From positions 1 to 34,045 of the forward strand of contig CAZUVK010000013.1 in the NCBI GenBank assembly GCA_964623785.1: a DNA stretch of 34,045 bases, written 5' to 3'. Made by a program: the position numbers and the translations under genes. This stretch comes from an uncultured Gemmatimonas sp. GTDB taxonomy: Bacteria > Gemmatimonadota > Gemmatimonadetes > Longimicrobiales > Longimicrobiaceae. Below are positions 1-34,045 of this stretch, one piece after another. The notes beneath the pieces are model-generated. The model saw only the letters and a program-made list of their open reading frames with translations, ran no database searches and was not told the DNA's origin. Position 1 is the stretch's first letter; every line of letters starts with the position of its first letter.

Positions 1-1330
1 GCTGGATGCTCGCGCGCGTGGCGGCATCCAGCATCTCCCGTTGCACAGCGGCCGTGGCCTCGGCGATGGTGGTCGTATCGTCGAGCACGGCGCGCAGTGG
101 GACCGCGTCCGTGAGGTGGTCGCGGATGAGGGCGCGTGTCGTGCCCGGCGCATCGTGATCGTGATACGCCACATCCACAGCCGCGCGGCCCGAGATGCGG
201 GCGATGAAGGTCGCGAACCGCGCGATGACCTCATCGGATTTGGCTGTTGTCTTCAGCGGCACGCGCGCGAAGCGGGCGGTCGCGCCGTCACGTGGCTTCA
301 GGTTCGACAGTTCCGGTGCCGCGAGCGACGTGAGACGGCTGATCCACGCCGCCTCGTGCCTGGTGGCTTTCGCGGCAACAGCGTTGGCCGCCGTGACGAG
401 GTCTTCGTCGGGTAACGGCAGGCGCTGGCCGGCCTCCACGCCGAGGTGGCGAATGGCCGACGCGGTGTCGAGGACTTCGCCGTCGGCGCCACGTGGTACC
501 TCGAAGGTCAACATGCCATCGGACACGTGCAGGCCCAGCGACCCCTGTTCCGTATGGACGACAGTGCCCGGTACAGCGTTCCCTCCCGGCGCGAACGCGA
601 CTTCTCCGGTCAAGAGGATGTGCCCCGCGAGACCAGGCAGGCGCGGCGCGATCAGAGGGTTGGCATAGTTGCCGAAATCCAGGGCCCGCACCGTGCGGGC
701 CAACTCGACACCCGGCTTACGCCAGTCGAGCATAGCCAACGCCTCGGGGCAATCGCCCGGGCCGTGATAGGTGGCGCGGTCCAGCGAATGCGGCGTGCGC
801 CGCAACGGCCCGTGCTCCATCAATTCGGCCAGCTCGGTAAACGACGAGATGCCGGCTTCGAAGCACTTCGCGTTCAGGGTGAAGGAGGTCTCGTCCTCGT
901 CCACCGGCACGACGCGCTGCAGCACAATGTCGCCGGAATCGAACGCCTCCGTCATCACGTGCCACGTAATGCCGTGCGTTGGTTCGCCGGCCATCAAGGC
1001 CCAGGCCGGGGCGAACAGCCCGCCGTACCGGGGCAGCGGCCCGTCGTGAAAATTCAGGGCCCCGCGGCGTGGCAGGCGCAGCGCCTCCGCCGGCACCCGG
1101 CGGAGGTTCGTAATGGAAAGGAGGTAGTCGAAGTCCGCGACGGCCAGCGCCGCCGGGTACGCGGCGTTCTGTGGCAGGCAGCGGATGCCGTTGACCGCTC
1201 CCCACCGGGCGATGGCGGGCTCGTCCGTGACCAGCGCGATGATGTCGTGGCCGCGCTCCCGCAGAATGTCCGCGCAGGAGATCAGGAGCGTGTCGTTGCC
1301 GATGAGAACGTGCCGAAGGGAAACCGTCAT
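1..1330 (-). CDS. 5' part of a multidomain thiotemplate-type protein: formyltransferase-like N-terminal domain followed by a condensation-domain-like segment. The 3' end runs off the left edge.
   Basis: Absent from the ORF track because it has no stop inside the window. Hand translation of the reverse strand from ATG (1330-1328) gives MTVSLRHVLIGNDTLLISCADILRERGHDIIALVTDEPAIARWGAVNGIRCLPQNAAYPAALA. Around nt 1069-1001 it reads RRGALNFHDGPLPRYGGLFAPAW (formyltransferase H-x-x-LPRY-G motif). Around nt 420-300 it reads LPLPDEDLV...EAAWISRLTSLAAPELSNLKPRDG, like the mid-region of NRPS C domains. No listed ORF interrupts this frame. Confidence 0.65.
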   Translation of the reverse strand, partial: MTVSLRHVLIGNDTLLISCADILRERGHDIIALVTDEPAIARWGAVNGIRCLPQNAAYPAALAVADFDYLLSITNLRRVPAEALRLPRRGALNFHDGPLPRYGGLFAPAWALMAGEPTHGITWHVMTEAFDSGDIVLQRVVPVDEDETSFTLNAKCFEAGISSFTELAELMEHGPLRRTPHSLDRATYHGPGDCPEALAMLDWRKPGVELARTVRALDFGNYANPLIAPRLPGLAGHILLTGEVAFAPGGNAVPGTVVHTEQGSLGLHVSDGMLTFEVPRGADGEVLDTASAIRHLGVEAGQRLPLPDEDLVTAANAVAAKATRHEAAWISRLTSLAAPELSNLKPRDGATARFARVPLKTTAKSDEVIARFATFIARISGRAAVDVAYHDHDAPGTTRALIRDHLTDAVPLRAVLDDTTTIAEATAAVQREMLDAATRASIQ

Positions 1331-2170
1331 TTCGAGACCGTTGTCGGGAGAATACCGTCAGCCATTTGGAGTGCTCGCGGCCAGCGCTTCAGGGTTGGAC
1401 CACATCCCCCCGGTCTCACAGCTTTCTCGAAGGAGGTAATAGACGATCCCGAACTGAATACGGGTGCGGGCATGGAGACTGAACCGGGGCGCCCGTCAAC
1501 GGACGCGTCGGCGAGTTCCGGCAATATCATACGGCTCCATCACCAATCGTCAGGTCGCGTTGGACGTTTGTCTTACAACCGCCCGCACCTCCAGGATCCG
1601 ATCTGCGCCGGTCCTGATGCCCCCTGCCGTCGAAACAGCCCTTTTCCGACGACAAAGGCCGCCCCGGGCCCCGGAGATTGCGTTCGGAGGTCCAGTTCAC
1701 GAAGGGGAATGTACCACGGGCCGACGCGTGATCCCAATTCGGCTGGCCATTCCTGATCCAGAGCATCGGCTCCGATCCAGGAGAAATCGAGAGCGTGCAG
1801 CGCGTCGTTCCCGGTCTTCGCCCGCCCGGCCGCTGCGTTCCATGCCGTATGCCTTCGATTACCCGATCCGGTCGCGGTCGCGGAACGGCTGTCGCCGAAG
1901 TACCTGGGGGCATCCATCCCCCGGTACGAGGAGCCTTTCCTTCCCTGCTGGAATTCTGCACGACCCCTCGCGTTTTGCCTGAGCGGATCGCGATCGGCGA
2001 GAATCGTCCGAATCCGTAACTCATTGCCTCAGAAGAATATAGGTTCTGCGTTCCGGTGTGGTCCGCGCATTGCCAGACGTCCCCCCCGAAGTCTCGCTGG
2101 AAGAAGTACTCACCAGCACGGGTCGGAGCTGACGATTCCGACTCTCATCGCCCTTCGAGGCAAGTTCGAT

Positions 2171-2260
2171 ACGCTGCTCAGAGCAAACCCGCCGAAAGAC
2201 GGGGGCGCAGAGCCACGGGGCTACCGCGGTTTCCACCGCCATGCCAGCCGGGCCGCCAGC
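2171..2260 (+). promoter_or_regulatory. GEMM-I (c-di-GMP-I class) riboswitch aptamer, copy A
   Basis: ACGCUGCUCAGAGCAAACCCGCCGAAAGACGGGGGCGCAGAGCCACGGGGCUACCGCGGUUUCCACCGCCAUGCCAGCCGGGCCGCCAGC. Matches the remembered Vc2/GEMM-I core block by block: CAGGGCAAACC, a hairpin with GAAA tetraloop, GACGCAAAGCC, CGG-CU, the P2 hairpin, then AGC-GGG. The tetraloop hairpin is CCCG/CGGG and the second hairpin is GCGGU-UUCC-ACCGC. Confidence 0.75.
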
Positions 2261-2311
2261 TAGAGACCCGACCCCATCCGGTCGAGTCCGTGCCGGCGGC
2301 CGTTTTGTTTG
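2251..2311 (+). terminator. Intrinsic terminator / expression platform of riboswitch copy A
   Basis: GGCCGCC (2251-2257, part of the conserved aptamer 3' strand) pairs with GGCGGCC (2295-2301). This encloses an inner hairpin GACCCGACC/GGUCGAGUC (2265-2288, one mismatch) and is followed directly by GUUUUGUUUGU (2302-2312). Confidence 0.6.
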
Positions 2312-2426
2312 TACCAGGCCAGACCGGCTCCGTGGAATCGCCTGGATGGTTCGGGTCTGAGGTCGAGTGCGTATCGGCATCCACGCAGTTCCATGCGTGC
2401 GGTTGGGAAACAGAAGACGGGACAGT

Positions 2427-2545
2427 GCGCTGCTCAGAGCAAAACCGCTGAAAGGCGGTGACGCAGAGCCACGGGGCTACAGCGGTCATCATCGATCGCC
2501 ACGCCAGCCGGGCCGCCAGCCACGACGATGCAGAAAAGCTGGCGG
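2427..2545 (+). promoter_or_regulatory. GEMM-I (c-di-GMP-I class) riboswitch aptamer, copy B, plus downstream alternative hairpin
   Basis: GCGCUGCUCAGAGCAAAACCGCUGAAAGGCGGUGACGCAGAGCCACGGGGCUACAGCGGUCAUCAUCGAUCGCCACGCCAGCCGGGCCGCCAGC (2427-2520). Same conserved blocks as copy A, but both hairpin stems have different, still complementary sequences (CCGC/GCGG; GCGGUC/GAUCGC). The conserved 3' strand CCGCCAGC (2513-2520) can pair perfectly with GCUGGCGG (2538-2545), 32 nt before the ATG at 2577. Confidence 0.75.
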
Positions 2546-2576: not shown

Positions 2577-4748
2577 ATGATGAATCGACGGACGACCTTT
2601 CTGGGCAGTGCGGTGGCGGCGGTCATGATGATCGCTGGCTGTGACGCTGCCCTGCTCGACACGGAGGCGTCACGAGTCGGAGCGATCGGCCTCGCGAGCG
2701 AGTTCGCGGTAAACGATAGCGAGACCGGGCGCCTGCCCATCTCGGTCGTGGACCGGACGGGAAACCCGGTGGATGTGCCGGTGACCTGGACCACCGCGAA
2801 TGCGCGGGTCGCGACGGTTGACGAGAGCGGCGTCGTAACGGGCCAGTTTCCTGGTACGACCACGATCACCGCGACCGCGGGCGGCGTGAGCAAGGCGTCT
2901 ACGGTCACCGTGCGGCAGGTTGCCACGCGGCTCGAACGCCTGTCGTCGGAGGCTCTGGAGGGATCCGAGTTCGAACCCCTCGACGAAGAAGTCGTGGTGA
3001 GGCTCGTCGATCGACATGACAACCCGGTCCCCGGCGTCACGGTCGATTTCCAGGTCGTCGATGGTGGCGGCTCCGTCAGCCCCGACCGCGCACTCACCGA
3101 TTCAGACGGTCTTGCCAGCACGTTGTGGACGCTCGGCGCCAGCGGTGAGCAGGGCCTCGAAACCCTGGCGCGAAGGCCCACTGCCAGCCAGTCCCTCCTC
3201 AAGGATCTGATCACCCTCATCCTGGCAAGGGCCTCCAGACCGACCACGACCACGCCGGAGACCCCCCCGCCGCCGCCGGTGAAGGAGACGCCGCCGCCTG
3301 CACCGCCAGCGACGCCGCCGAGCCAGCCGGTGACGGCTCCGCACGGGGTGGCCGACCTTCGAGTCGTGCGAACCACGCAGAACTCGATTACGATCAGGTG
3401 GACCGGTGTCGACGACGGTAATGGAGGATCGGCAAAATACGCGATGCGCGCCGGCTCACCGGTCCTGCGGTGGGATCAGGCCGCGGAGACGGAACGTGCG
3501 GTTTCCGCGGGCGCGAAGGGCTCAGCGATCGAGCACACCTTTACCGATGTCCCCGCGGGTACGAGCGTCGAAATCCAGCTCATCAGCTATCGCGGTACGC
3601 TTGGGCAGCAGCCTGCGCTGGGCGGCCGTTCCAACGTCGTTGCCGCCAAGACGGCCAGTGCTGCTGGTGGTGGTGGTGGTGGTGGTGGTGCCGAACCCCC
3701 CTCAAATCTGGGGACTCTCACGATCTCTCCGACAACGGTATCGTTGACTGGAGTCGGGTCAACGGCGAATCTTAGTGCCGAAGCGCGAAGCACCAACGGT
3801 GCCCGAATCCTCACACCGGGTGTCGTCTGGACGAGTCTCAACAGCGGAGTTGCGACCGTGAACAGTTCAGGCAGGGTGACCGCCAGGGCGGTCGGAATCG
3901 CTTTTATCGTAGCGACCGCGAACTGCTGCTCGCCGGATACGGTGCGGGTGGAGGTTTCCGCGCAGCAGCAGCCGGAGAGCCCGCCGCCGCCAACGACGCC
4001 ACCGCCTCCCACGAATCCGACCCCGCCTCCTACGACCCCGTCCCCGGGCGGCGCGGCGTACGAGCAGCAGTGGAATTTCTCCAGCACGCAGGGACTGCTT
4101 GCCGCCGCGATGGGCTCGCCCAATTGTCCGGTATCGCTGGAGCAGTCGTCGGGGATTCCGACGAGCACCACGGGCAAGTTCGCGCGGACCCGCTACCCCG
4201 GAACTGGGAGCGAGGGTAGCTGCAACCTCGACCTCGCGCTGAACATCGGGAACGCGCGGGAGATCTGGCTGGAAGTTTGGTTGCGGTTTGACTCCAACTG
4301 GGGCGGGACCAGCGACGACAAGACGCTGTTCGTCTTCAGCAATGCCCAAGGGGGCCGTCGTTGGGAGATCCACTACGCCACGCCCACTCGCTCCTTCGGC
4401 GGTGCGAGTAACATGGCCTTCGAGTTCACGAGCGACCACCCCGCCTTCCCAGGTGCGCTGGACGTGGTCAACAAGGTATGGGACGGGCAATGGCATCGTC
4501 ACCGCCTGCATCTGAAGATGGGTAACGGCGACGGCATTTTCGAGTGGTGGTTCGACGATCACCCGATCATTACGCGGACTCAGGCATCTGCTGGATGGGT
4601 GAGCCGAACGGGTAGCAACCTCAACACGGGCAACCCGGCAACCGACTTCTTCCACTCCATTCGCCTCGGCGCGAACGCGGATCCGCGCGGCTCCGGGACG
4701 CGCGACTGGGGCCCGGTGCGGGTCTACACCACGAATCCGGGCTGGTAG
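2577..4748 (+). CDS. Surface lipoprotein with Ig-like (Big_2/Big_1-type) and FN3 repeats, Pro-rich and poly-Gly linkers, and a C-terminal ConA-like jelly-roll (polysaccharide-lyase-like) domain
   Basis: The 2367..4748 ORF is trimmed to the ATGATG at 2577, preceded by GGAGA at 2564-2568; the upstream part of the ORF is riboswitch sequence. N-terminus MMNRRTTFLGSAVAAVMMIAGC has a lipobox IAGC (Cys22). VTWTTANARVATVDESGVVTG...TITATAGG and VVWTSLNSGVATVNSSGRVTARAVG look like Big_2 repeats. VADLRVVRTTQNSITIRWTGV looks like FN3. The C-terminus EIWLEVWLRFDSNW...VWDGQWHRHRLHLKMGNGDGIFEWWFDDHPI resembles Polysacc_lyase/ConA-like folds. Confidence 0.8.
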   Translation: MMNRRTTFLGSAVAAVMMIAGCDAALLDTEASRVGAIGLASEFAVNDSETGRLPISVVDRTGNPVDVPVTWTTANARVATVDESGVVTGQFPGTTTITATAGGVSKASTVTVRQVATRLERLSSEALEGSEFEPLDEEVVVRLVDRHDNPVPGVTVDFQVVDGGGSVSPDRALTDSDGLASTLWTLGASGEQGLETLARRPTASQSLLKDLITLILARASRPTTTTPETPPPPPVKETPPPAPPATPPSQPVTAPHGVADLRVVRTTQNSITIRWTGVDDGNGGSAKYAMRAGSPVLRWDQAAETERAVSAGAKGSAIEHTFTDVPAGTSVEIQLISYRGTLGQQPALGGRSNVVAAKTASAAGGGGGGGGAEPPSNLGTLTISPTTVSLTGVGSTANLSAEARSTNGARILTPGVVWTSLNSGVATVNSSGRVTARAVGIAFIVATANCCSPDTVRVEVSAQQQPESPPPPTTPPPPTNPTPPPTTPSPGGAAYEQQWNFSSTQGLLAAAMGSPNCPVSLEQSSGIPTSTTGKFARTRYPGTGSEGSCNLDLALNIGNAREIWLEVWLRFDSNWGGTSDDKTLFVFSNAQGGRRWEIHYATPTRSFGGASNMAFEFTSDHPAFPGALDVVNKVWDGQWHRHRLHLKMGNGDGIFEWWFDDHPIITRTQASAGWVSRTGSNLNTGNPATDFFHSIRLGANADPRGSGTRDWGPVRVYTTNPGW
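3666..3689 (+). repeat. (GGT)8 trinucleotide tract encoding Gly8 linker
   Basis: ggtggtggtggtggtggtggtggt counted directly. It encodes the GGGGGGGG linker between the FN3 and second Big_2 domains. Confidence 0.95.
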
Positions 4749-4828: not shown

Positions 4829-4876
4829 CATGACTAGGCCCCTGGAAGTGAATCCACTTCCAGGGGCCTAGTCATG
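4829..4876. terminator. Bidirectional hairpin terminator between convergent genes
   Basis: catgactaggcccctggaagtg / aatc / cacttccaggggcctagtcatg: a perfect 22-bp stem with a 4-nt loop, between the stop at 4748 (+) and the stop at 4933 (-). There is no clear U-tract. Confidence 0.6.
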
Positions 4877-4932
4877 CCAGCAGGTTGTCGTCGTGCCAGG
4901 ACGCTCCATTGCGCAACTTCACGCAGTGACGA

Positions 4933-6072
4933 TCAGCCTTCGCGATGGGTGGGGACCATTGATCTGATAAGTGCCCGATATCGATCCAGGTACACTTCGG
5001 TGGTATACTCTCGCAGCGCGCGCTCCCGGGCCCGTTCGCCGAGCTCGCGAGCGTACTCCGGAGACGCCATCAATCGTCGAAGAGCCAGTGCCAGGCCCTC
5101 GGAACTTCCTGTTTCGAACAAAAGCCCGTCGACGCCATCCTCGATCACGCTCGGAATGCCTCCCGCGCGACTCCCTATCCGTGGTCGGCCGACCAACGCC
5201 GCTTCGAGAAGGACCCTCCCCATTCCCTCTGATCTCGAAGGAAGAACGAGGAAGCTCGAGTCTTCGATCAGGCTTCGAATGACCTCGGCCTTCTGCGGCC
5301 CCATGATTTCGACGCGGTCGTCGACCAGGCATGTCTCGCGGGCTGCCTTCTCGATTCCGAATCCCACCAGGACGAGGCGCCATTCGGGGAACGATGGGGC
5401 AACTTCATTGAAGGCTTTCAACAGCAGGTCCACGCCCTTGAGCAGGAACGGATGCCCGACAAAAAGGATCTGCCGCCGCGGCTCCGCCCCCGTCGGAGCG
5501 AAGAGCTCCGAATTGACGATATCGGGGAAAGCGGTGACCGGTGTCGTGGCGTTCTGGAGGTCAAATCCCTCGATCTGCTCCGGATAGAGTGGCTTCAGCA
5601 TGTCGACGCGGGACATGACCGCCGATCCGACCTTGACCATTCGGTGTCGCCTGGTCTCCGCGACAGCGCGATCTGGTTCGTCGATGAACGTATCCGGATG
5701 CCAGTAGACGCCGTTCACTTCGCAAATGACCTTCGCTCCGGTAAGCCTCTTGAGGATCAGGGCCAGGACGCCACTCTGCAGAGGATCGTAAGAAAGCAGC
5801 AGGAGGGACCGCCCTCGTCCCCATCGGATCCAGAGACCCCGGGATACTACCCGCCACATGTAGGCCAGGCGTGAGAGACGCGGAAGGCCATTGAGCGAAC
5901 GAAGCGTGCGCGCCCGGAATCTTCCGGCCCGGATTTCCTGCGTTGCCCCTCCCCAAGTAATGATCTCACCGTCGAACTCAGCGCCGAAAGTTCCCGCCAG
6001 GACTCGCAGATCCTCAACGGACCAGACGGGGCCGGGGCGAATGACGTAGAGATATGGGCTACCGGACCCCAT
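4933..6072 (-). CDS. Glycosyltransferase family 4 (Glycos_transf_1)
   Basis: 379-aa ORF with ATG start. C-terminal half reads FVGHPFLLKGVDLLLKAF...VLPSRSEGMGRVLLEAALVGRPRIGSRAGGIPSVIEDGVDGLLF, the typical GT4 E-x7-E region. Confidence 0.85.
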   Translation of the reverse strand: MGSGSPYLYVIRPGPVWSVEDLRVLAGTFGAEFDGEIITWGGATQEIRAGRFRARTLRSLNGLPRLSRLAYMWRVVSRGLWIRWGRGRSLLLLSYDPLQSGVLALILKRLTGAKVICEVNGVYWHPDTFIDEPDRAVAETRRHRMVKVGSAVMSRVDMLKPLYPEQIEGFDLQNATTPVTAFPDIVNSELFAPTGAEPRRQILFVGHPFLLKGVDLLLKAFNEVAPSFPEWRLVLVGFGIEKAARETCLVDDRVEIMGPQKAEVIRSLIEDSSFLVLPSRSEGMGRVLLEAALVGRPRIGSRAGGIPSVIEDGVDGLLFETGSSEGLALALRRLMASPEYARELGERARERALREYTTEVYLDRYRALIRSMVPTHREG

Positions 6073-18407: not shown

Positions 18408-20177
18408 ATGGATAGGAATGCGGGACTGATCAGGTTTGTCGTGGCGAACAACCGGACCCTCACCGTGGCCGCGGTTGTTCTGCTGGGCATCGGCGGAATT
18501 CTGGAAGGTTTTGGAATCGCCGCCGCGCTTCCGGTCCTGGAGGCGATGGTCGGCGCCGAGGGATCGGAGCGTGGCGCGCTGGCGGAGGGGCTCACCACGG
18601 CGCTGGGTGCCATCGGGATCACGGCGACGGTCAACACGCTCCTGATCTTCCTGGTGGTGATGTTCCTGATCCGCGCCGTGTTCCTGTACGCCGCCTCGAT
18701 CACCGTTGGGTTCGGTGTGGCGAGGATGGTCATGGAATTCCGGCTGCGCCTGATCCGCGCGATCACCCGGGCCGAGTGGAAGCACGCGCTGTCCTACCCC
18801 ACCGGCTACATCGCGAACGCGCTGGGAAGCGAGTCCGACCGAACGGGAATGGCGTACGCGGAGTTCACCCAGATGGTCGCGGAAGGCATCCAGGTCCTCG
18901 TCTATCTGGCCCTGGTCTTCTTCATCTCGTGGCAGACGGGTCTGGCGGCCATCGCGGTCGGCGGCACCGTCCTCCTGCTCTTCCAGGGCCGCGTGGAAGC
19001 AAGCCGCCGCGCGGGACACGATCAGGTCAACGTCCGCCGATCTGTCCTCGCCCGGCTCACCGATGCCCTTCCAAGCCTCAAACCGCTCAAGGCCATGGGG
19101 AGGGAGCGCTACCTTCTTCCGCGTCTCGAGCAGGAAACGCATGCCTATTTCGAGGCGCAGAAGCGTGAGCTGGCGTCGACCGAACTCCTCAAGAAGGCTC
19201 GCGAACCACTGGTGATGACGGCTCTCGCCGCCGGGCTCTGGGGGGTGATCACCTACTCAACCATCAGTTCCACATCGGTGATGATCCTCGCGGCGCTCTT
19301 CTACAGAAGCGTCACCAGCATCACGAACATGCAGCAGCGCTGGGTGTCGGTCACCGTTGGAGACCATTCGTTCCGCTCCCTGATGGAGCACATCCAGTCC
19401 GCCGAGGATGCGCGCGAGCGATGGGTCTCGACGGGCACGCCGCCGCCCCGGTTGCGGGAATCGCTTCGACTCGACGGGGTCAGCTTTTCGTACGGCGATG
19501 CACAGATCCTTCGTGGCGTCGATGCCGAGCTCCAGGCCGGGACGTTCGTGACCCTTGCCGGACCTTCCGGGTCTGGAAAGAGCACGCTGGTCGACCTGAT
19601 CACCGGCCTTCTTCGGCCGACCGGGGGTCGGATTCTGATCGACGGGATCGATCTCAGCGAGGTGGATGTCCCCGAATGGCGCAAGCACATCGGGTATGTG
19701 CCGCAGGAGCCGATGCTCTTCAGCGATTCCGTGATGAACAACATCTCGCTGGGCGATCCGGACATTTCCGTCCAGGACGTGGAGAATGCGCTGCGGATCG
19801 CCAGTGCGTGGGAGTTCGTTCAGAACCTGCCGAACGGGCTGGATCAGCGGATCGGGGAGGGTGGGATGCAGCTGTCGGGCGGTCAGCGCCAGCGGCTTTC
19901 CATCGCGCGCGCCGTGGTGGTACGTCCGTCGTTGCTGATTCTCGATGAGCCAACGACGGCGCTCGACACCGTTTCGGAGTCAGAAGTCGGCAGGGCGATC
20001 TCGGGGCTTCGCAGCCACCTGACAATTCTTGCCATCTCGCACCAGACGGCCCTTCGGGATCTGGCAGACGTCGTCTGGGAGTTGAACGGGGGAAGGATCC
20101 AGATGACGACGACTTCGGGCGCGGAGTGGGCGCCGGAGGATAGCGCCTCTGTTGACATGTATCCCGCGCAAGGCTGA
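18408..20177 (+). CDS. ABC exporter, fused permease/ATPase (MsbA-like type I exporter)
   Basis: 589 aa with an N-terminal 6-TM region. Walker A GPSGSGKST, signature LSGGQRQRLSIARA, Walker B LLILDEPT. Confidence 0.9.
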   Translation: MDRNAGLIRFVVANNRTLTVAAVVLLGIGGILEGFGIAAALPVLEAMVGAEGSERGALAEGLTTALGAIGITATVNTLLIFLVVMFLIRAVFLYAASITVGFGVARMVMEFRLRLIRAITRAEWKHALSYPTGYIANALGSESDRTGMAYAEFTQMVAEGIQVLVYLALVFFISWQTGLAAIAVGGTVLLLFQGRVEASRRAGHDQVNVRRSVLARLTDALPSLKPLKAMGRERYLLPRLEQETHAYFEAQKRELASTELLKKAREPLVMTALAAGLWGVITYSTISSTSVMILAALFYRSVTSITNMQQRWVSVTVGDHSFRSLMEHIQSAEDARERWVSTGTPPPRLRESLRLDGVSFSYGDAQILRGVDAELQAGTFVTLAGPSGSGKSTLVDLITGLLRPTGGRILIDGIDLSEVDVPEWRKHIGYVPQEPMLFSDSVMNNISLGDPDISVQDVENALRIASAWEFVQNLPNGLDQRIGEGGMQLSGGQRQRLSIARAVVVRPSLLILDEPTTALDTVSESEVGRAISGLRSHLTILAISHQTALRDLADVVWELNGGRIQMTTTSGAEWAPEDSASVDMYPAQG

Positions 20178-21339: not shown

Positions 21340-22562
21340 CACGAGACGGGCTGTGGGATCCCGGCTTGCGTACGAGTGGTCCCAGCCGCGCGCAGGAGCA
21401 GGTCCGAGAGCGGTCGCGCGACCGCTGCCCAACTTCGCTCGCGCGCGAGATCGTAGACCGCGTCACCCAATCGTTCGCGAGAATCGTTGTCGCGCAGCAA
21501 TGAAACCGTGAGCGTCGCGAGATCGCCCGGTTGCCTCCGGGTCAGTTCGCGAATGACCGGGGAATCCCCGAGCCCGTTCGCGGCCATGGGGGTCAGAATG
21601 ACGGGCGTGCCGACGGCCCAGGCCTCGAGCACCTTGTTCTTGATGCCCGTACCCGATTGCATGGGCGCGACCGCGAGCCAGGAGCGCCGCAGAACATCCG
21701 GCATATCGGGAACTGAGCCAAGTATCTCGACTCCCGGGACGGCCTGGAGCGCGGTGATCTCAGGTGTCGGATCTCGGCCGGCCACCAGAAACACCGCGTC
21801 CGGCACCTGACGCTTTACCGCTGGCCACACCTCACGAGCGAAGAAGAGTACCGCCTCGAAATTCGGCGGGTACCCCATGACTCCCGTGAAGCACACCGTT
21901 GGTCGCGGATCGCGCGCTGTACTGTCCCGCACGCCAAGGTGGATTCCGTTCGGAACAACGTGCACGCAATCCCGCCCGATCACCCGGCGAAGTACCCGCG
22001 CATCATCCTCGCCCACGGCGACGGTCGCGAACGAGTCGCGACCCAGACGCCGCTCGTTGCGAGCGGCGTCGAAGCAATCTCGCCCCAGTCGCAAGGCGTC
22101 CAGAGGCTGACGCGCCAGACGCATCGCTCGCCAGGTCTCCAGAGTATGGCAGTCCACGAAATCGATGACGACGTTGCCGGAGCGAGTGCCAGCGAACGCG
22201 GATGCGCCGATCCTCGCCCATAACAACACCGCATCGGGCCTCTCGGAGTCGGCAACGCGCATTACCGTTTCGTTCAGCGCCGTCCGCTCTTCAATCGTGA
22301 GGCGAAAGGCATCCTGAGCCCTGGGTATCGACACGAACCGAATCTTATCCGGTAGTGCGGACTTGTCGGCATCACGGCACGGGCTGACGAGGGTCACATC
22401 CCACTCGCGCGCGAGCTCGTGCAGGAGCCCGGCGACCCGCAAGGTGTGGCCCTCCCGAATCGGCCACGAAAAAATAGGTGTGACGGCAAGCAGACGTGGT
22501 TGCGGCACGGTTGTATCTTGGTTGTTGAAGCGTCTCACGGGGCATGGCATCACCCGGCCCAT
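21339..22562 (-). CDS. Glycosyltransferase resembling the PEP-CTERM/EpsH1-system-associated sugar transferase type
   Basis: 407 aa. FTGVMGYPPNFEAVLFFAREVWPAVKRQVPDAVFLVAGRDPTPEITALQAVPGVEILGSVPDMPDVLRRSWLAVAPMQSGTGIKNKVLEAWAVGTPVILTP closely follows the remembered consensus of that family (FtGaMdYwPN...VAPLR.arGiQNKVLEAmA). Confidence 0.8.
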   Translation of the reverse strand: MGRVMPCPVRRFNNQDTTVPQPRLLAVTPIFSWPIREGHTLRVAGLLHELAREWDVTLVSPCRDADKSALPDKIRFVSIPRAQDAFRLTIEERTALNETVMRVADSERPDAVLLWARIGASAFAGTRSGNVVIDFVDCHTLETWRAMRLARQPLDALRLGRDCFDAARNERRLGRDSFATVAVGEDDARVLRRVIGRDCVHVVPNGIHLGVRDSTARDPRPTVCFTGVMGYPPNFEAVLFFAREVWPAVKRQVPDAVFLVAGRDPTPEITALQAVPGVEILGSVPDMPDVLRRSWLAVAPMQSGTGIKNKVLEAWAVGTPVILTPMAANGLGDSPVIRELTRRQPGDLATLTVSLLRDNDSRERLGDAVYDLARERSWAAVARPLSDLLLRAAGTTRTQAGIPQPVS

Positions 22563-22574
22563 TGCCCGTTCGCG

Positions 22575-23086
22575 CTACGTGGACCCCATCCGTTCGATGG
22601 TGAGCCAGGCGCCAGGGAGCCGGTCCAGCGTCCGTTGTAGCCGATAGGCCGAAGCGCGATCCCTCGCGCGCGTCGGCTCACCCGGTCGGGCATCAGGATG
22701 ATGCCGTGCAGGAAGCGCCGGAACTCCATGCCCCCGCGCACGCAGATCCGCTCCGCGTGCGGCTCCAGTTGCTCGATCGCGCGGTCGATCCAAAAGGGCG
22801 CGTCGCCGTGACTGGCCACATTCCCCGGCAGGTTCACCATGTAGAGCGCTTCCTTCGTGTTCGCCAGCGACACGATCAGCGGCGCGTACCTCCCGATGCC
22901 CTTGTACGACAGGCTCATGCCCTGCTTCTTCTCCCCCGAGGTCGGAGCAATCGTCCAGGTCCAGATAGGCGACCGGACCCTGCAGCTCCTTGCACCGGCC
23001 TCGCCACAGCTTCGGCCGCACCGCGTTGCCTCCATCAGTCCGGTCACGCCCTCTTCGGAAAAACGCCGGCAGAAATCCCTCGCCAT
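22575..23086 (-). pseudogene. Decayed DDE transposase (IS1380/IS4-like) remnant
   Basis: Two overlapping minus-strand frames carry pieces of one transposase. One frame has VAYLDLDDCSDLGG. The other has KKQGMSLSYKGIGRYAPLIVSLANTKEALYMVNLPGNVASHGDAPFWIDRAIEQLEPHAERICVRG, followed abruptly by a C-terminal-like FRRFLHGIILMPDRVSRRARGIAL. This implies a frameshift plus an internal deletion. No intact DDE triad can be read. Confidence 0.6.
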
Positions 23087-29389: not shown

Positions 29390-30135
29390 GTCGCGCGCAG
29401 CCAGGCCATCAGGGAGCCTATTGCCCTGGATGGAACCATTCCGTTCCAGATAGAGTCATCTTCTTCCCATGCATGGGCGTCTTCCACTACCTGATGCTCG
29501 ATGCGGGTTAGGGCGTCGCTGAGGCGTGCGAAGTTGCGGCCGCCGTCAGCGTGAGTCTCCAACAGCAGCGCGCGATCCGCGGTAGAACCACGGTAATCCG
29601 CTGCGTCCACCGCTTCCATCTGCGCCACAAGCGATGCCGAGACAAGCCGTTGCCCAAACTCAACCGTCCCGTCGCGTCCCGTGAGCAACCCGGCGGAACT
29701 CGCTAATACCGCCCGAACCCATTCCTTTCCATCCACCACCGGATCCCAGAGAACCAACCTTCGGACATCGCGCCTTCCCGTCGCTGTTGCGGCGGCGACG
29801 CTCGCCCCGAGGCGGAGGCCCACCAGGTCGACCCGGGATCTGCCGCTCATCGCCTTTAGTTCGTCAATCGCCATCGCCGTATCGCCAATCCAGCGTGACA
29901 TGTCCGCGTCCGTTTCACTGCCCCAGGAATCGCCAGTTCCCGAGTAGTCGAAGCGCATGGCGTGAAAGCCTAGTTCGGCGAGGCGCCGGGATGCAACCCG
30001 CAGCGATCTGTGCGCATACTGATACTCCGATCCCCACGATGGGCAGAACAGAACGGCACCCGACCCGACACCGCGCGGCGAATGATAGTACCCGAAAAGT
30101 TGCTCCTCCGCCGTCCCAAAAAAGAATGCCGTCAT
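29386..30135 (-). CDS. Alpha/beta-fold protein resembling 'hydrolase 2, exosortase A system-associated'; GLRLG elbow
   Basis: 249 aa. LFGYYHSP...AVLFCPSWGSEYQYAHRSLRVASRRLAELGFHAMRFDYSGTGDS...VDLVGLRLGASVA...LVLWDPVVDGKEW follows the remembered hydr2_PEP pattern (GLRLGA, LWqPV.sGk). ATGA overlap with the NRPS stop. Confidence 0.65.
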   Translation of the reverse strand: MTAFFFGTAEEQLFGYYHSPRGVGSGAVLFCPSWGSEYQYAHRSLRVASRRLAELGFHAMRFDYSGTGDSWGSETDADMSRWIGDTAMAIDELKAMSGRSRVDLVGLRLGASVAAATATGRRDVRRLVLWDPVVDGKEWVRAVLASSAGLLTGRDGTVEFGQRLVSASLVAQMEAVDAADYRGSTADRALLLETHADGGRNFARLSDALTRIEHQVVEDAHAWEEDDSIWNGMVPSRAIGSLMAWLRAT

Positions 30136-33100
30136 GCGATCTGCGCGTGGCCGGGAATCGAGGCGGCAATCTCGGCGATTGTCATGAAAAAAAATGATCG
30201 CGGTTCAGGACGATGTCCGGTTCGCTCCGCGATGAGATCCGCGGCCCGCAGGGCGAGGAGCGAGTGCCCGCCAATCTCGAAGAAGTTATCACCTGGGTTG
30301 ACCTCCTCACTACCCAGGAGGCTAGCAAAGATTTCTGAAATCATACGTTCTGCCGGCGTCAGGTCGGCAGCGGAGATGGCCGGCTTGACGCCAGTGGCCA
30401 GCGGGTCCGGCAGTGCCTTGCGGTCGACCTTCCCGTTCGGCGTGAGCGGGAAACTCTCGAGTGGCCAAACGAGCCCCGGCACCATGTACCGCGGGAGCGT
30501 CGACCCCAGGCGTTTCCGGATCTCCGACGCAAGCAGCTCCCCGTCTTCCTCGAAGACCACATACGCCACCAGCCGCCGGTCCTCCGCCTCTCCCCGCGCC
30601 ATCACCACCGCCTGCCTCACCTCCAAAAAGCCCTCCAGCGCGCTCTCAATCTCTCCCAGCTCGATCCGGTACCCGTGCACCTTCACCTGGAAGTCCATGC
30701 GACCCAGATGCTCCAGGCGCCCGTCGGCGCGCCAACGGCCCAGGTCCCCCGTGCGGTACATCCGCCCGCCGGGCACGAACGGGTCCGGCCGGAACCGCTC
30801 GGCGGTCAGCTCCGGACGGTTCCGGTACCCGCACGCCACCCCGTCACCGGCGATCCAGATCTCCCCGTGGACGCCGTCGGGAACGAGCTGGTCATGCCGG
30901 TCCAGCACGTACACTCGCGTGTTCGCGACCGGACAGCCTACCAGGACCGGACCCTCTCCGTCCACACGCTCGAGAGTCGACCAGATTGTCGTCTCTGTCG
31001 GACCGTACAGGTTCCACACCTCGTCCGCTCGCTCGACCAGAGACCGCGCCAGTTCCTCGGGCAGCGACTCGCCCCCGCAGAGGGCTTTCTTCAATCGGCC
31101 CTTCCAGCCCGCGTCCAGCAGCATGCGCCAGGTCGCCGGCGTCGCCTGCATTACCGTCGCCTCGCCCTCCTCCAGCCGCTCGAGTAGGGCGTTTCCGTCA
31201 CCTGCGACCTCGCGCGAGGCGATCCGCACCCGCGCGCCCACACACAGCGGCAGGAACAGCTCCAGCCCCGAGATGTCGAACGACAGCGTGGTCACCGCCA
31301 GCAGCGAGTCTTCCGCCGCCAGCCCCGGCGCCTGCCGCATCGAGCCCAGGAAGTTGCGCAAGGCACTGTGCGGGATTTCCACCCCCTTCGGTTTGCCTGT
31401 CGAACCCGAGGTGTAGATCACGTACGCGAGATCGTCGCTCCCCGGGAGCCGCCGCGGCGCATGTGCCGTGGCCGGACTCGCGCCACCGCTCGCGAGCAGC
31501 GCCTCGGGCGTGAGCAGTTCCGCCCCGCCCAGCGGCTCGTCCGTGTCGCTGAGCACCAGCGAGACCTGCCCGTCCTCGACCATGTAGCTGAGCCGGTCCA
31601 CCGGAAAATCCGGATCCAGCGGTAGATACGCCGCCCCGCTGCGCAGGATGCCCAGCACCACGCCCAGCATCGGTGCCCCACGGCTCAGACGCACTCCGAT
31701 CAGATCCCCCGGGCCCAGCCCCTTGCCTTCCAGCGCCGCCGCGACACGCCCCGCGTACTCCCACAGCTCCCCGTAGCTCCAGACGTGACCCGCATCGTCG
31801 TCGACCGCGATCCGCTCCGGCGCCATCTCTACCCGCTCCTCGACCCACTCCAGAAAACTCCCCGAGGCAAGACCCGGCTCCACCGGTCCCGCTCGCTCTG
31901 TTACCAGATTCCTACGGACCGTTTCCGGGAGTAGGGGGATCCCGGCAATCGGCCGGTCCGGCTCAGCGAGGATTCCGTCCAGAAATACCGAGAACCCGGC
32001 GAAGAGCCGCTCGATATCCGCCGGTTCAAACAGGTCGGCGTTGAAGGAGCATCTGAATACCAGACCCTCCGGGCTCTCCACGGCATTGACGTTCAACTCG
32101 AAGGCCTCATAGCGCCGCGGCAGATGCAGAGCGCGCGCTCGGATCCCGCCAAAGCTCCCGGATGCACCCTGCCGATCCAGGTTGAAGAGGATCGGGACCA
32201 GCGGGATTCGGCTGGGGTCGCGCGGCGGATTGAGCTGCGCGAGCACTGATCCGAAGGTGCAATGGTGATGTTCATGCGCACCCAGAAGTTCGTTGCGCAC
32301 GGCCCGGAGCACCGAGGTGAACGGTGCATCCAGAGATATCCCGGCCCGCAGGGGCAGAAGGTTCACGCAGTGCCCAACGAGGCCAGGATCGCCATGGAAC
32401 GCCTGGCCTGCCGCCGTGACGCCGATCACCAGGTCTTCCTCCCCGGTGATTCGCGCAACGTACGCCTCGAAGGACGCGAGGATCGAGATGAGGAAGGTCG
32501 CGCCGTTCCTCGCCCCGAGTGCGCGCAGCCTGGAAACCGACTCCCGTTCAAACGAATGGTCGACATGACCGCCATTGTAGGTACGGATCGGCGGTCGAGG
32601 GCGGGAATGCGGCAGTTCGATCGTGGGTGGAAGCGCGCTGTACCGTTCGAGCCAGTGGCGCATGGAAACCGCATACTCCGGCGACTCAAGCTCGTTCGAC
32701 CTGTCGCGTGCGTAGTCGGCGAAGCTGGGTGCCGCAGGTAGATCGACTGGCCTGCCTTCGACGGCCGCCGCATAGAGCGCGGGGATCTCGCCGACGAGGA
32801 TCGCCATCGACCAGCCGTCGCAGACGATGTGGTGCGTGGTGAACAGCAGGAGGTGGGATTCCCTGCCCATTCGGAAGAGCTGTACTCGGACGAGGGGCCC
32901 ACGCACGAGATCGAATGGCTGCGCCGCCGCCCTCTCGGCCGCCACGAGAGCGGCCTCGAGCGTCACGTCATCGCCCAGGTCATGCTCTTCGAAATGCATC
33001 GTCGGCTCGCCGGCGATCACGAAGCTGAGACCGTCCTGAGTGAACGATGCCCGGAGGGCGTCGTGCCTCATGACCAGTCCCGCGAACGCGCGGTTCAACG

Positions 33101-33305
33101 CACCGACGTCCAGCGGCCCCTCGATATGGATGGGAAGGGAGATGCTGTATGCGCCGGAGGCGTCGGCACCCATCAGGGCAACGGCGAAGATCTCCCGCTG
33201 AGCCTCTGTCGAGGGTGCCTGATCGACTAGCTCGTCCCCGGCGAAAGGATCGAAGTCAACAGACTCATAACCCGCCTGACCATCGTACTGGGACATTGCC
33301 TTCAT
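30132..33305 (-). CDS. Single-module NRPS: condensation - adenylation - thiolation (C-A-T), no TE/R domain
   Basis: 1057 aa. C domain HHIVCDGWS (aa 158-166). A domain motifs LAYVIYTSGSTGKPKGV, NLYGPTETT, YRTGDLGRWRADGRLEHLGRMDFQVKVHGYRIELGEIE, PLTPNGKVDRKAL. T domain FFEIGGHSLLALR. The protein ends 37 aa after the T-domain serine. Confidence 0.92.
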   Translation of the reverse strand: MKAMSQYDGQAGYESVDFDPFAGDELVDQAPSTEAQREIFAVALMGADASGAYSISLPIHIEGPLDVGALNRAFAGLVMRHDALRASFTQDGLSFVIAGEPTMHFEEHDLGDDVTLEAALVAAERAAAQPFDLVRGPLVRVQLFRMGRESHLLLFTTHHIVCDGWSMAILVGEIPALYAAAVEGRPVDLPAAPSFADYARDRSNELESPEYAVSMRHWLERYSALPPTIELPHSRPRPPIRTYNGGHVDHSFERESVSRLRALGARNGATFLISILASFEAYVARITGEEDLVIGVTAAGQAFHGDPGLVGHCVNLLPLRAGISLDAPFTSVLRAVRNELLGAHEHHHCTFGSVLAQLNPPRDPSRIPLVPILFNLDRQGASGSFGGIRARALHLPRRYEAFELNVNAVESPEGLVFRCSFNADLFEPADIERLFAGFSVFLDGILAEPDRPIAGIPLLPETVRRNLVTERAGPVEPGLASGSFLEWVEERVEMAPERIAVDDDAGHVWSYGELWEYAGRVAAALEGKGLGPGDLIGVRLSRGAPMLGVVLGILRSGAAYLPLDPDFPVDRLSYMVEDGQVSLVLSDTDEPLGGAELLTPEALLASGGASPATAHAPRRLPGSDDLAYVIYTSGSTGKPKGVEIPHSALRNFLGSMRQAPGLAAEDSLLAVTTLSFDISGLELFLPLCVGARVRIASREVAGDGNALLERLEEGEATVMQATPATWRMLLDAGWKGRLKKALCGGESLPEELARSLVERADEVWNLYGPTETTIWSTLERVDGEGPVLVGCPVANTRVYVLDRHDQLVPDGVHGEIWIAGDGVACGYRNRPELTAERFRPDPFVPGGRMYRTGDLGRWRADGRLEHLGRMDFQVKVHGYRIELGEIESALEGFLEVRQAVVMARGEAEDRRLVAYVVFEEDGELLASEIRKRLGSTLPRYMVPGLVWPLESFPLTPNGKVDRKALPDPLATGVKPAISAADLTPAERMISEIFASLLGSEEVNPGDNFFEIGGHSLLALRAADLIAERTGHRPEPRSFFFMTIAEIAASIPGHAQIA

Positions 33306-34045
33306 CCTTCCACACGAACGTATTTACCCGGTCGATCCGGGTCGGGTCGGAACCAGCCGGGGTTGCCATCGGGGCCACGGCCCAGTCGCGCGTCGGGGTA
33401 GGGAGGGGCGCCAAGCCCACCGCGCAGCACGGCCGCGCCCGGACGATCCCCGTTTCCGCCCGGCCTCGAGCCGTTGCCGCCCTGCTCACGGGGGAGCAAT
33501 CCCACATCGAGAAGCTCGGTAAGTGCGCCCCGGAATGCGTCCACCACGAAGTCAACGTCCGCGCTCGTATGGGCGGCCGTGAAGAACCAGGTGCGGCCCT
33601 CGAAGATGTGGATACCGCGTTCTCGAAGGAGCGCGAGAAAAACGCCGCCGACGGGCACCGGTACGGTGAAGTGGACCCGGAAGGCCGAGCTGAAACGCTG
33701 GAAGCCGATCGGTGCACCGAGTTCCCGGCAGACCGCCTGAAGCCGTTCCACGCACTGTTCAGCAAGAGCGGTCACCCGGGTCGGGAGCGCATCGCCTTCA
33801 TCCCGCAGGTGGGTCAGCGTAGCCTTCACGGCGGCAAGCGCCAGCGGGTGACGTACGAAGGTCCCCGCGAAATAGGTCATCCCCACGGCGGGAAAGGAGT
33901 CGTCGCCGTAGACCCAGGGGCCCCCGTCGAGGGCATCGAGGAATCTGGGTGAGCCGGAGACAAGGCCGATCGGGAGCCCGCCGCCCACGACCTTGCCGTA
34001 GGTGGCGATGTCGGCCTCGACACCGAAGTATCCCTGCGCGCCGCG
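33302..34045 (-). CDS. Class-III PLP aminotransferase (glutamate-1-semialdehyde-aminomutase-like), C-terminal part; 5' end off the right edge
   Basis: Hand translation from nt 34045 gives RGAQGYFGVEADIATYGKVVGGGLPIGLVSGSPRFLDAL... (GK-x-x-GGG-x-P-x-G, the PLP-lysine region of GSA-AM-like enzymes). The frame is open to the window edge. Its stop overlaps the NRPS ATG (ATGA at 33302-33305). It may be the terminal AMT domain of a larger synthase. Confidence 0.8.
   Translation of the reverse strand, partial: RGAQGYFGVEADIATYGKVVGGGLPIGLVSGSPRFLDALDGGPWVYGDDSFPAVGMTYFAGTFVRHPLALAAVKATLTHLRDEGDALPTRVTALAEQCVERLQAVCRELGAPIGFQRFSSAFRVHFTVPVPVGGVFLALLRERGIHIFEGRTWFFTAAHTSADVDFVVDAFRGALTELLDVGLLPREQGGNGSRPGGNGDRPGAAVLRGGLGAPPYPDARLGRGPDGNPGWFRPDPDRPGKYVRVEG

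Follow-up and report, generated by a model that had tools for sequence, protein, structure and literature searches.

Two serial GEMM-I-fold aptamers with adenine at the Vc2 G20 position in the leader of a surface lipoprotein gene of an uncultured Gemmatimonas sp.

Background

In riboswitches of the GEMM-I fold, G20 (numbering of the Vibrio cholerae aptamer Vc2) contacts the Hoogsteen edge of one guanine of the ligand, cyclic di-GMP (c-di-GMP), and C92 forms a Watson-Crick pair with the other guanine, while in the aptamers for cyclic GMP-AMP (cGAMP) an adenine at position 20 pairs with the adenine of the ligand. Here we describe two aptamers of this fold, both with adenine at position 20 (A20), which lie in series upstream of a surface lipoprotein gene in DNA from an uncultured Gemmatimonas sp. 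(phylum Gemmatimonadota). The stretch analysed, hereafter the window, comprises 34,045 nucleotides (assembly GCA_964623785.1, contig CAZUVK010000013.1, positions 1 to 34,045).

Both the tandem arrangement of GEMM-I aptamers and the A20 variation are already known. Vc2 discriminates against cGAMP (10 uM, as compared to pM; PMC6140456). A20 is needed for the recognition of cGAMP and is not enough for selectivity: the Vc2 G20A mutant has similar affinities for c-di-GMP (53 nM) and cGAMP (120 nM), and in natural A20 aptamers the spectrum extends from the highly cGAMP-selective Gs1761 and Gmet_0970 to the bispecific Cbe 1-2 (PMC6140456). In Geobacter, the A20G change switches Gmet_0970 from cGAMP to c-di-GMP sensing, and GEMM-I/Ib riboswitches placed in tandem function as ON switches in series (PMC6456294). 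A statistical enrichment of tandem c-di-GMP riboswitches has been found across prokaryotes, homotypic ones being common; the phyla named for this enrichment are Thermodesulfobacteriota and Deinococcota, and not Gemmatimonadota (PMC12452182).

The window aptamers share with Vc2 the helix P1 and two hairpins, of which the first is closed by a GAAA tetraloop and the second bears the receptor-like motif CUA(A/C)...(U/C)A(U/C)G; they keep A47 and C92 and score 59-61 bits against the family model RF01051. They depart from Vc2 in that G20 is replaced by A, A48 by G and the U opposite A49 by C, and in the joining region J1/2, which reads CUCAGA where the consensus is A-rich. With the Geobacter GEMM-Ib riboswitches (Gs1761/pgcA, Gmet_0970 and the tandem before omcAHG) they have A20 in common, as well as the predicted ON switching on an overlapping intrinsic terminator and the tandem position before genes of extracellular or surface proteins (PMC6456294, PMC6140456). 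The differences lie in the phylum, in that no Hypr GGDEF is known in Gemmatimonadota, in the second riboswitch, which is predicted to be translational here rather than terminator-based, and perhaps in selectivity. Gs1761 presumably also lacks the CUCAGA/AGA junction signature of the window aptamers. The A20 pocket is likewise shared with Cbe 1-2 of Clostridium beijerinckii and with Vc2 G20A, for which dual c-di-GMP/cGAMP binding is documented (PMC6140456). Judged from the sequences in our metagenome sample that combine A20 with A48, aptamers of that type are without G48 and CUCAGA. The Bc1-Bc2(-Bc3) array of Bacillus thuringiensis is made up of what we take to be G20 aptamers. Like the window aptamers, its members are serial, complete GEMM-I riboswitches placed before the gene of a surface protein, in this case a collagen-adhesion protein (Zhou et al. 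2016, cited in PMC12452182).

Results and Discussion

Identification of two GEMM-I-fold aptamers

The whole window was scanned with cmscan against Rfam 15 at gathering thresholds. The sole family matched was RF01051 (c-di-GMP-I/GEMM-I), with exactly two matches, both on the + strand, both covering the full model and both far above the gathering score of 35, which assigns them to the family by score:

2172-2261, + strand: aptamer A, GEMM-I fold (RF01051 match 2172-2260, 59.4 bits, E-value 2.3e-9, model positions 1-87 of 87; our own class model R1, 97.5 bits; covariation)
2173-2176/2257-2260, + strand: P1 of aptamer A, with P1a closed by the GAAA loop 2194-2197 and P1b/P3 in the 3' part
2428-2521, + strand: aptamer B, GEMM-I fold (RF01051 match 2428-2520, 61.1 bits, E-value 8.7e-10, model positions 1-87 of 87; R1, 96.5 bits)
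2429-2432/2517-2520, + strand: P1 of aptamer B, with the GAAA loop 2450-2453 and P3 at 2482-2487/2494-2499
2182 (aptamer A) and 2438 (aptamer B), + strand: adenine in the Vc2 G20 column (cmscan alignment, model position 11)

Both elements are thus already recognised by standard Rfam annotation. The original prediction, made from the sequence alone, had placed tandem GEMM-I aptamers here, and all of the sequence blocks that it quoted are present as written; its two starts (2171 and 2427) were one base early, and its 257-nucleotide spacing becomes 256 nucleotides from start to start, with a 166-nucleotide spacer. The two aptamers lie in one leader on the same strand, each with an expression platform of its own, and are followed by a single coding sequence from 2577; their co-transcription is assumed. 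Very probably, they represent two functional GEMM-I-fold dinucleotide riboswitches in series.

The numbering of Vc2 was carried onto the RF01051 model by our own mapping (model position 11 = G20, 38 = A47, 39 = A48 and 83 = C92). In both copies the alignment places the consensus AAaGGCAAA opposite CAGAGCAAA, and the first G of GGCAAA, directly 5' of the G21-C46 pair, was taken as Vc2 G20. The G20 column holds A, not G, in both copies, as had been foreseen. The A47 column holds A (2209 and 2465), the A48 column G (2210 and 2466), which gives ACGCAGAGCC, and the C92 column C (2256 and 2516). Among the contacts G20, A47 and C92 of c-di-GMP-I, A47 and C92 are therefore kept and G20 is replaced by A in both copies, which is the pocket composition of GEMM-Ib. 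The fold is that of GEMM-I, and from the sequence it need not imply selectivity for c-di-GMP, A20 being a known deviation of the GEMM-Ib type. The label 'cGAMP-type' that had been attached to the two aptamers holds for the base at position 20 and is not established for the ligand, since A20 is insufficient for selectivity (PMC6140456).

Model position 81 is C instead of U in both copies, and cmscan flagged the resulting A.C non-pair with model position 40 at the base of the second hairpin, on the side of Vc2 A49 (2211/2254 and 2467/2514). The GNRA loops GAAA at 2194-2197 and 2450-2453 are accompanied by receptor-like CUAC...CAUG and CUAC...CACG motifs, as judged from their presence in the sequence. 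C2206/G2247 and C2462/G2507 are presumably the equivalents of C44/G83, an inter-helix pair in the Vc2 structure.

The variant family c-di-GMP-I-GGC (RF03167) was considered for copy A and rejected. In a local scan it scored 54.2, below its gathering score of 59, despite a better E-value than that of RF01051; moreover, it requires G at the A47 position (ACGCGAAGCC) together with G20, whereas the window has A20 and ACGCAGAGCC.

Support for the fold from related aptamers

Pairing preserved by different sequences in the two copies had been put forward as evidence for the fold. Between copies A and B there is only one true double change, C-G to A-U in the outer P1a pair, and because this compensation is thin, relatives were collected. 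A pattern scan (GCAAA..GAAA..CGCAGAGCC, one genome per species) returned at least 120 loci, with about 45 true aptamers among the matches listed, and 38 related aptamers were aligned with the two window copies on the GEMM-I structure plus a 5-bp P1. In this alignment 91.6% of the cells are paired and 17 of the 27 pairs show both-sided changes, values matched by none of 500 shuffled alignments; when the partners were slid by 1-3 columns, pairing dropped to 26-46%. P1 and both hairpins are present with compensatory changes. The fold is thus upheld by the relatives rather than by the comparison of the two copies. Positions 40/81 form a standard pair in none of the 38 aligned aptamers.

Expression platforms of the two copies

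An expression platform had been proposed for each copy, and the analysis bears this out, with a terminator for copy A and a predicted structure masking the ribosome-binding site for copy B:

2251-2312, + strand: intrinsic terminator of riboswitch A, GGCCGCC (2251-2257) pairing with GGCGGCC (2295-2301), inner hairpin 2265-2289
2513-2545, + strand: alternative hairpin CCGCCAGC/GCUGGCGG of copy B, 8 bp (2513-2520/2538-2545) with a 17-nucleotide loop, present in the minimum free energy (MFE) structures
2485-2582, + strand: predicted long-range OFF-state helix, 2485-2511 with 2549-2581, covering the Shine-Dalgarno (SD) sequence and both AUGs
2565-2568, + strand: SD sequence GGAG, followed by the start AUG 2577-2579 and a second AUG at 2580 (from the sequence)

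The GC stem announced for copy A is a hairpin at 2251-2301 of -33.9 kcal/mol (z-score -4.3), which none of 200 shuffles equalled in stability, and it is followed by the U-tract GUUUUGUUUGU (2302-2312). The 5' arm of this terminator, GGCCGCC(AGC), is at the same time the 3' strand of P2/P1 of aptamer A. In an unconstrained fold of 2172-2313 the terminator is preferred (-65.4 kcal/mol); with the pairs of the aptamer imposed (-48.5 kcal/mol), the base of the terminator stem cannot form and the inner hairpin alone remains, ending 13 nucleotides 5' of the U-tract. Since aptamer and terminator are mutually exclusive, riboswitch A is predicted to be an ON switch acting by antitermination. A simple terminator scan overlooked the element because of its long loop and returned here antisense artefacts inside P1a only.

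For copy B, the perfect 8-bp helix that had been proposed is present and competes with P1/P2 of the aptamer. The proposal was incomplete, as this helix is part of a larger structure, predicted to sequester the SD sequence and the AUG, that has no terminator tail: no U-tract is found 3' of the 2513-2545 hairpin, and because it is followed by AAACCGAAUC instead, the hairpin is not a terminator. In the MFE structure computed for 2428-2600 (-66.0 kcal/mol), a longer helix is nucleated by this hairpin, and CAUCAUCG (2487-2494), in the P3 loop, is exactly complementary to CGAUGAUG (2575-2582). With aptamer B enforced (-48.8 kcal/mol), the probability of the SD/AUG region being unpaired rises, the SD sequence and the second AUG becoming mostly unpaired. 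The pairing of copy B with the ribosome-binding site was equalled by none of 1000 shuffles. These computations lend moderate support to copy B as a translational ON switch.

Taken together, the leader 2172-2582 would probably hold two complete serial riboswitches, both of which turn the lipoprotein gene on in the presence of ligand. At the first step, ligand on aptamer A would hold the 3' strand GGCCGCCAGC in P2/P1, block the terminator 2251-2312 and allow read-through; in its absence the terminator would form and transcription would stop at about 2312. At the second step, ligand on aptamer B would keep 2485-2520 folded, with the SD sequence (2565-2568) and the AUG (2577) exposed; otherwise the aptamer strand would pair with 2538-2582 and hide the ribosome-binding site. 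The structures of the first step were computed and its function deduced from them, and the second step is the weaker prediction. Because ligand would be required at both steps, the response would be sharper and AND-like, and two-step control of matrix remodelling can reasonably be inferred.

Several observations weigh against this scheme. No sigma-70-like promoter was found upstream of the leader in a sequence scan. As many as 24 of 600 same-length windows of this GC-rich DNA (4%) show pairing as good as that of copy B with the ribosome-binding site. The anti-AUG core (2488-2493) lies in the P3 loop, which is single-stranded in the bound aptamer, and might pair with the AUG region even when ligand is bound. 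Finally, the aptamer folds are less stable than the predicted OFF states by about 17 kcal/mol, which would demand kinetic control.

A sub-class of GEMM-I aptamers and its tandems

With the exception of four from other lineages, the aptamers of the AGAGCC pattern have CUCAGA at J1/2, AGA at J2/3 and the 3' strand GCCGCCAG; rare J1/2 variants are CCCAGA, CCAAGA and AUCAGA. In order to counter the bias of the pattern, metagenome contigs were scanned allowing A or G at position 48 and then with a class covariance model, the scores of which are bimodal (members at least 87 bits, all others at most 74). The 114 metagenome aptamers read, at positions 20/48, A/G in 10 cases, A/A in 7, G/A in 79, G/G in none and C/A in 2, the remaining 16 being gapped at position 20. 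The sub-class hence makes up about 9% of this GEMM-I sample. The 59 class members examined, drawn from at least five phyla, have A at position 20 without exception.

The A.C combination at 40/81 was considered as a marker of the class and discarded. All 10 A20/G48 metagenome aptamers have C81, and the A40.C81 non-pair is invariant across the class, but C81 is also found in 19 canonical G20/A48 metagenome aptamers. Because C81 is not class-specific, the marks of the class are A20, G48 and the J1/2 sequence.

Among the matches listed, the class occurs in at least 31 metagenome-assembled genomes (MAGs) of Gemmatimonadota, at least 5 of Nitrospirota, at least 2 of Acidobacteriota, at least 2 of Ca. 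Eisenbacteria and at least 1 of Desulfuromonadales, and in at least 2 possibly mis-binned MAGs. Lipoproteins or secreted proteins with Big_2/Big_1/fn3 repeats predominate among the products of the genes that follow; at locus L005, the C-terminal domain of this product is related to that of the window lipoprotein. A crude motif count among the matches listed places the terminator design GGGCCGCCAGCG ... CGCUGGCGGCC(C) plus a U-run 3' of 46 of the 59 class members. Nitrospirota-type members (L006, L007, L026, L047 and L105) carry insertions of 40-60 nucleotides in P3 and keep the junctions and the terminator design. The aptamers of L044 (4127-4225, - strand; Nitrospirae MAG) and L058 (3946-4044, - strand; Planctomycetota MAG) are identical and have near-alike flanks, which may reflect mis-binning or recent transfer.

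Homotypic A20-A20 tandems resembling that of the window were found at L005, L019, L022 and L047, and in every homotypic tandem examined the same terminator design stands behind both aptamers. Other leaders are heterotypic: at L140, L178, L191 and L216 an A20-class aptamer with its terminator is followed about 90 nucleotides further on by a G20/A48 aptamer, and at L043 and L197 the order is reversed:

L140, 5285-5554: heterotypic tandem
L216, 1516-1789: heterotypic tandem
L191, 5691-5951: heterotypic tandem
L178, 6710-6985, - strand: heterotypic tandem
L043, 6755-7017: heterotypic tandem, reverse order
L197, 680-937, - strand: heterotypic tandem, reverse order

All aptamers of the heterotypic tandems match Rfam clan CL00126 above gathering, and for the tail GCCGAACCUC of the second aptamer at L140, L178, L191 and L216 there are two possible pairing partners, an upstream GAGGGGA and the SD sequence. 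Such heterotypic tandems may be two-input gates. RF03167 scores two of their canonical aptamers just above its gathering score of 59 (L140 5464-5554, 61.5; L191 5860-5951, 60.1); these read ACGCAAAGCC, with A and not G at position 47, and automated annotation would thus mislabel them.

A text search of the literature for the signature (CUCAGAGCAAA and ACGCAGAGCC, CUCAGA/AGA) returned unrelated primers only. The window aptamers thus belong to a discrete GEMM-I sub-class of which we found no description. We put forward, as a possibility somewhat less likely than not, that this sub-class has a ligand specificity of its own (3',3'-cGAMP or another G-containing dinucleotide) in Gemmatimonadota, Nitrospirota, Acidobacteriota and Ca. 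Eisenbacteria and, in many leaders, works together with a serial canonical G20 c-di-GMP aptamer as a natural two-input (AND) gate for two different dinucleotides.

Ligand and competing explanations

The dinucleotide bound cannot be told from the sequence, and its assignment is a matter of inference. Since C92 and A47 are kept and position 20 is A, the ligand is presumably a G-containing 3',3' cyclic dinucleotide. We favour, as the probable case, 3',3'-cGAMP, bound selectively or together with c-di-GMP, over c-di-GMP alone; for cGAMP-selective binding taken by itself our confidence is somewhat below even, and bispecific binding of c-di-GMP and cGAMP appears unlikely. A distinct specificity is suggested by the invariance of A20, by the presence of G20 aptamers in the same genomes and leaders and by the joint change of the junction bases; the coexistence of the sub-class with canonical G20 aptamers argues, without proving it, for a specificity of its own, with cGAMP as the favoured candidate.

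The strongest competing explanation is that both aptamers are ordinary c-di-GMP riboswitches in which A20 lowers the affinity to a useful range and the tandem sharpens the response. Rfam places both under c-di-GMP-I, exopolysaccharide (EPS) and adhesin targets are classic members of the c-di-GMP regulon, and homotypic tandem c-di-GMP riboswitches are common (PMC12452182). A20 aptamers can take c-di-GMP by means of a protonated adenine, and A20 variants do so with nanomolar affinity (PMC6140456). As to a source of cGAMP, no GGDEF, EAL or CD-NTase (cGAS/DncV-like nucleotidyltransferase) was found among the window open reading frames (ORFs), none of the 7 GGDEF ORFs in the collected loci was of the Ser/Thr (Hypr) type by a regular expression of little power, Hypr GGDEF cGAMP synthases are regarded as deltaproteobacterial in origin, and a literature search returned no cGAMP synthase in the phyla of the sub-class and no link of cGAMP signalling to Gemmatimonadota. 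However, no reversion of A20 to G was seen in the 59 class members, although G20 binds c-di-GMP far more tightly, separate G20/A48 aptamers are kept in the same genomes and leaders, and the neighbouring junction changes (CUCAGA at J1/2, G48) resemble a retuned pocket rather than drift. We consider c-di-GMP riboswitches of the ordinary kind rather unlikely.

Another explanation concerns copy B, which may be a duplicate with a decayed terminator and no regulatory role, leaving riboswitch A alone functional. The CUGGCGGC arm of its alternative hairpin forms the terminator 3' half in relatives; the CUGGCGG arm resembles that 3' arm and then runs into AAACCGAAUC, as expected from decay, and the pairing with the ribosome-binding site is only moderately above background. 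This is improbable in view of the state of the copy: its core nucleotides and helices are all intact, its scores are typical of the class (61.1 bits for RF01051 and 96.5 bits for R1), its P3 loop holds an exact 8-nucleotide complement of the start-codon region, and the second riboswitch is likewise translational in four related leaders.

The pair could also respond to another G-containing dinucleotide, with A20, G48 and CUCAGA forming a new specificity. To our knowledge, the ligands of the GGC and UAU variants of GEMM-I in Rfam are still undetermined, which would be a precedent. Several junction nucleotides differ at once from canonical GEMM-I, and the cGAMP aptamer Gs1761, which we take to read AAAGCC, is unlike the sub-class. 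Nevertheless, A20, A47 and C92 are exactly the pocket of the cGAMP type, nothing independent hints at another ligand, and we regard this explanation as very improbable. Repression by the ligand is the least credible explanation of all: GEMM-I riboswitches are known in both polarities (PMC9262584), but the 5' arm of the copy A terminator doubles as the 3' strand of P2/P1 of its aptamer, which makes terminator and aptamer mutually exclusive, the strand masking the ribosome-binding site in copy B is likewise part of its aptamer, and a separate anti-terminator element is neither needed nor seen.

As it stands, the locus is a clean case of a known design, serial GEMM-I riboswitches before a surface-protein gene, in a phylum for which no riboswitch or cGAMP literature was found. 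Of more interest as a lead are the sub-class itself and its combination with canonical aptamers, the A20/G48/CUCAGA type being frequent in soil phyla, where it controls a family of lipoproteins with immunoglobulin-like (Ig) repeats and is often paired with a G20 aptamer. If the sub-class does prefer cGAMP, the role of this dinucleotide as a general second messenger would reach beyond the Geobacter lineage, with housekeeping cGAMP-type signalling well beyond Deltaproteobacteria/Desulfuromonadales, and each heterotypic tandem would amount to a natural logic gate for two signals.

The regulated gene and its surroundings

The gene downstream of the two riboswitches had been described as encoding a secreted adhesin- or lyase-like surface lipoprotein next to an EPS locus:

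2577-4748, + strand: regulated gene, 723-aa lipoprotein matching database entry P0001, start MMNRRTTFLGSAVAAVMMIAGC...

Its product is a surface lipoprotein as described, with the signal ...MMIAGC (lipobox IAGC, from the translation) followed by Big_1, an fn3-like region and Big_2 (Big_1 and Big_2 by Pfam). The gene stands alone as a monocistronic unit, in convergent orientation to the - strand EPS genes. The protein has no close homolog, its best database match showing 43% identity over 29% of the query, and only six database homologs were found for its C-terminal domain (residues 481-723, 243 aa), one of which, P0099, carries PF14099 (Polysacc_lyase). A sequence search of this domain against the PDB gave no matches. 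Its AlphaFold2 model is a beta-jelly roll (predicted local distance difference test, pLDDT, 76.5; predicted template modelling score, pTM, 0.81), and the nearest structures by Foldseek are Cip1 (3zyp, template modelling scores 0.60/0.66), the polysaccharide lyase family (PL) 14 alginate lyase vAL-1 and PL7 alginate lyases, with lectins ranking lower. The term 'lyase-like' is thus supported by the model as a likeness to polysaccharide lyases and lectins at the level of the fold, and no further.

The remainder of the window (4933-33988, mainly - strand) is by its gene content an EPS-type cluster, as had been suggested. It encodes several glycosyltransferases of family GT4, a Wzy_C polymerase/ligase, a PIG-L deacetylase, an asparagine synthase (AsnB-type amidotransferase), a UDP-GlcNAc 2-epimerase, an ATP-grasp protein, GNAT/FemAB-like acetyltransferases, two alpha/beta hydrolases and, on the + strand (18408-20177), an ABC exporter. 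The named best homologs are all from Gemmatimonadota; those of the epimerase are from Gemmatimonadaceae (71% identity), Gemmatimonadales (66%) and Longimicrobiaceae (65%), and those of the Ig region of the lipoprotein from Gemmatimonadota, Longimicrobiaceae and Gemmatimonas.

The cluster also contains a protein resembling a non-ribosomal peptide synthetase (NRPS) with condensation, adenylation and thiolation (C-A-T) domains (30132-33305), an NRPS module being unusual in such a place. Long ORFs without a Pfam match lie at 446-1756 (+ strand), 4874-5587 (+ strand), 22550-23086 (- strand) and 33302-33988 (- strand); the first of these, of 436 aa, is directly upstream of the riboswitch leader. Behind class aptamers of Gemmatimonadota, a frequent protein start, ahead of the lipoprotein signal, is M[PT][FY]x[HYF]KL[SA]xRLA (L002, L005, L020, L022, L030, L043, L052, L065, L074, L087, L094, L116 and L197). 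This motif is absent from the window lipoprotein; it may act as a peptide signal or, at the mRNA level, as a conserved element.

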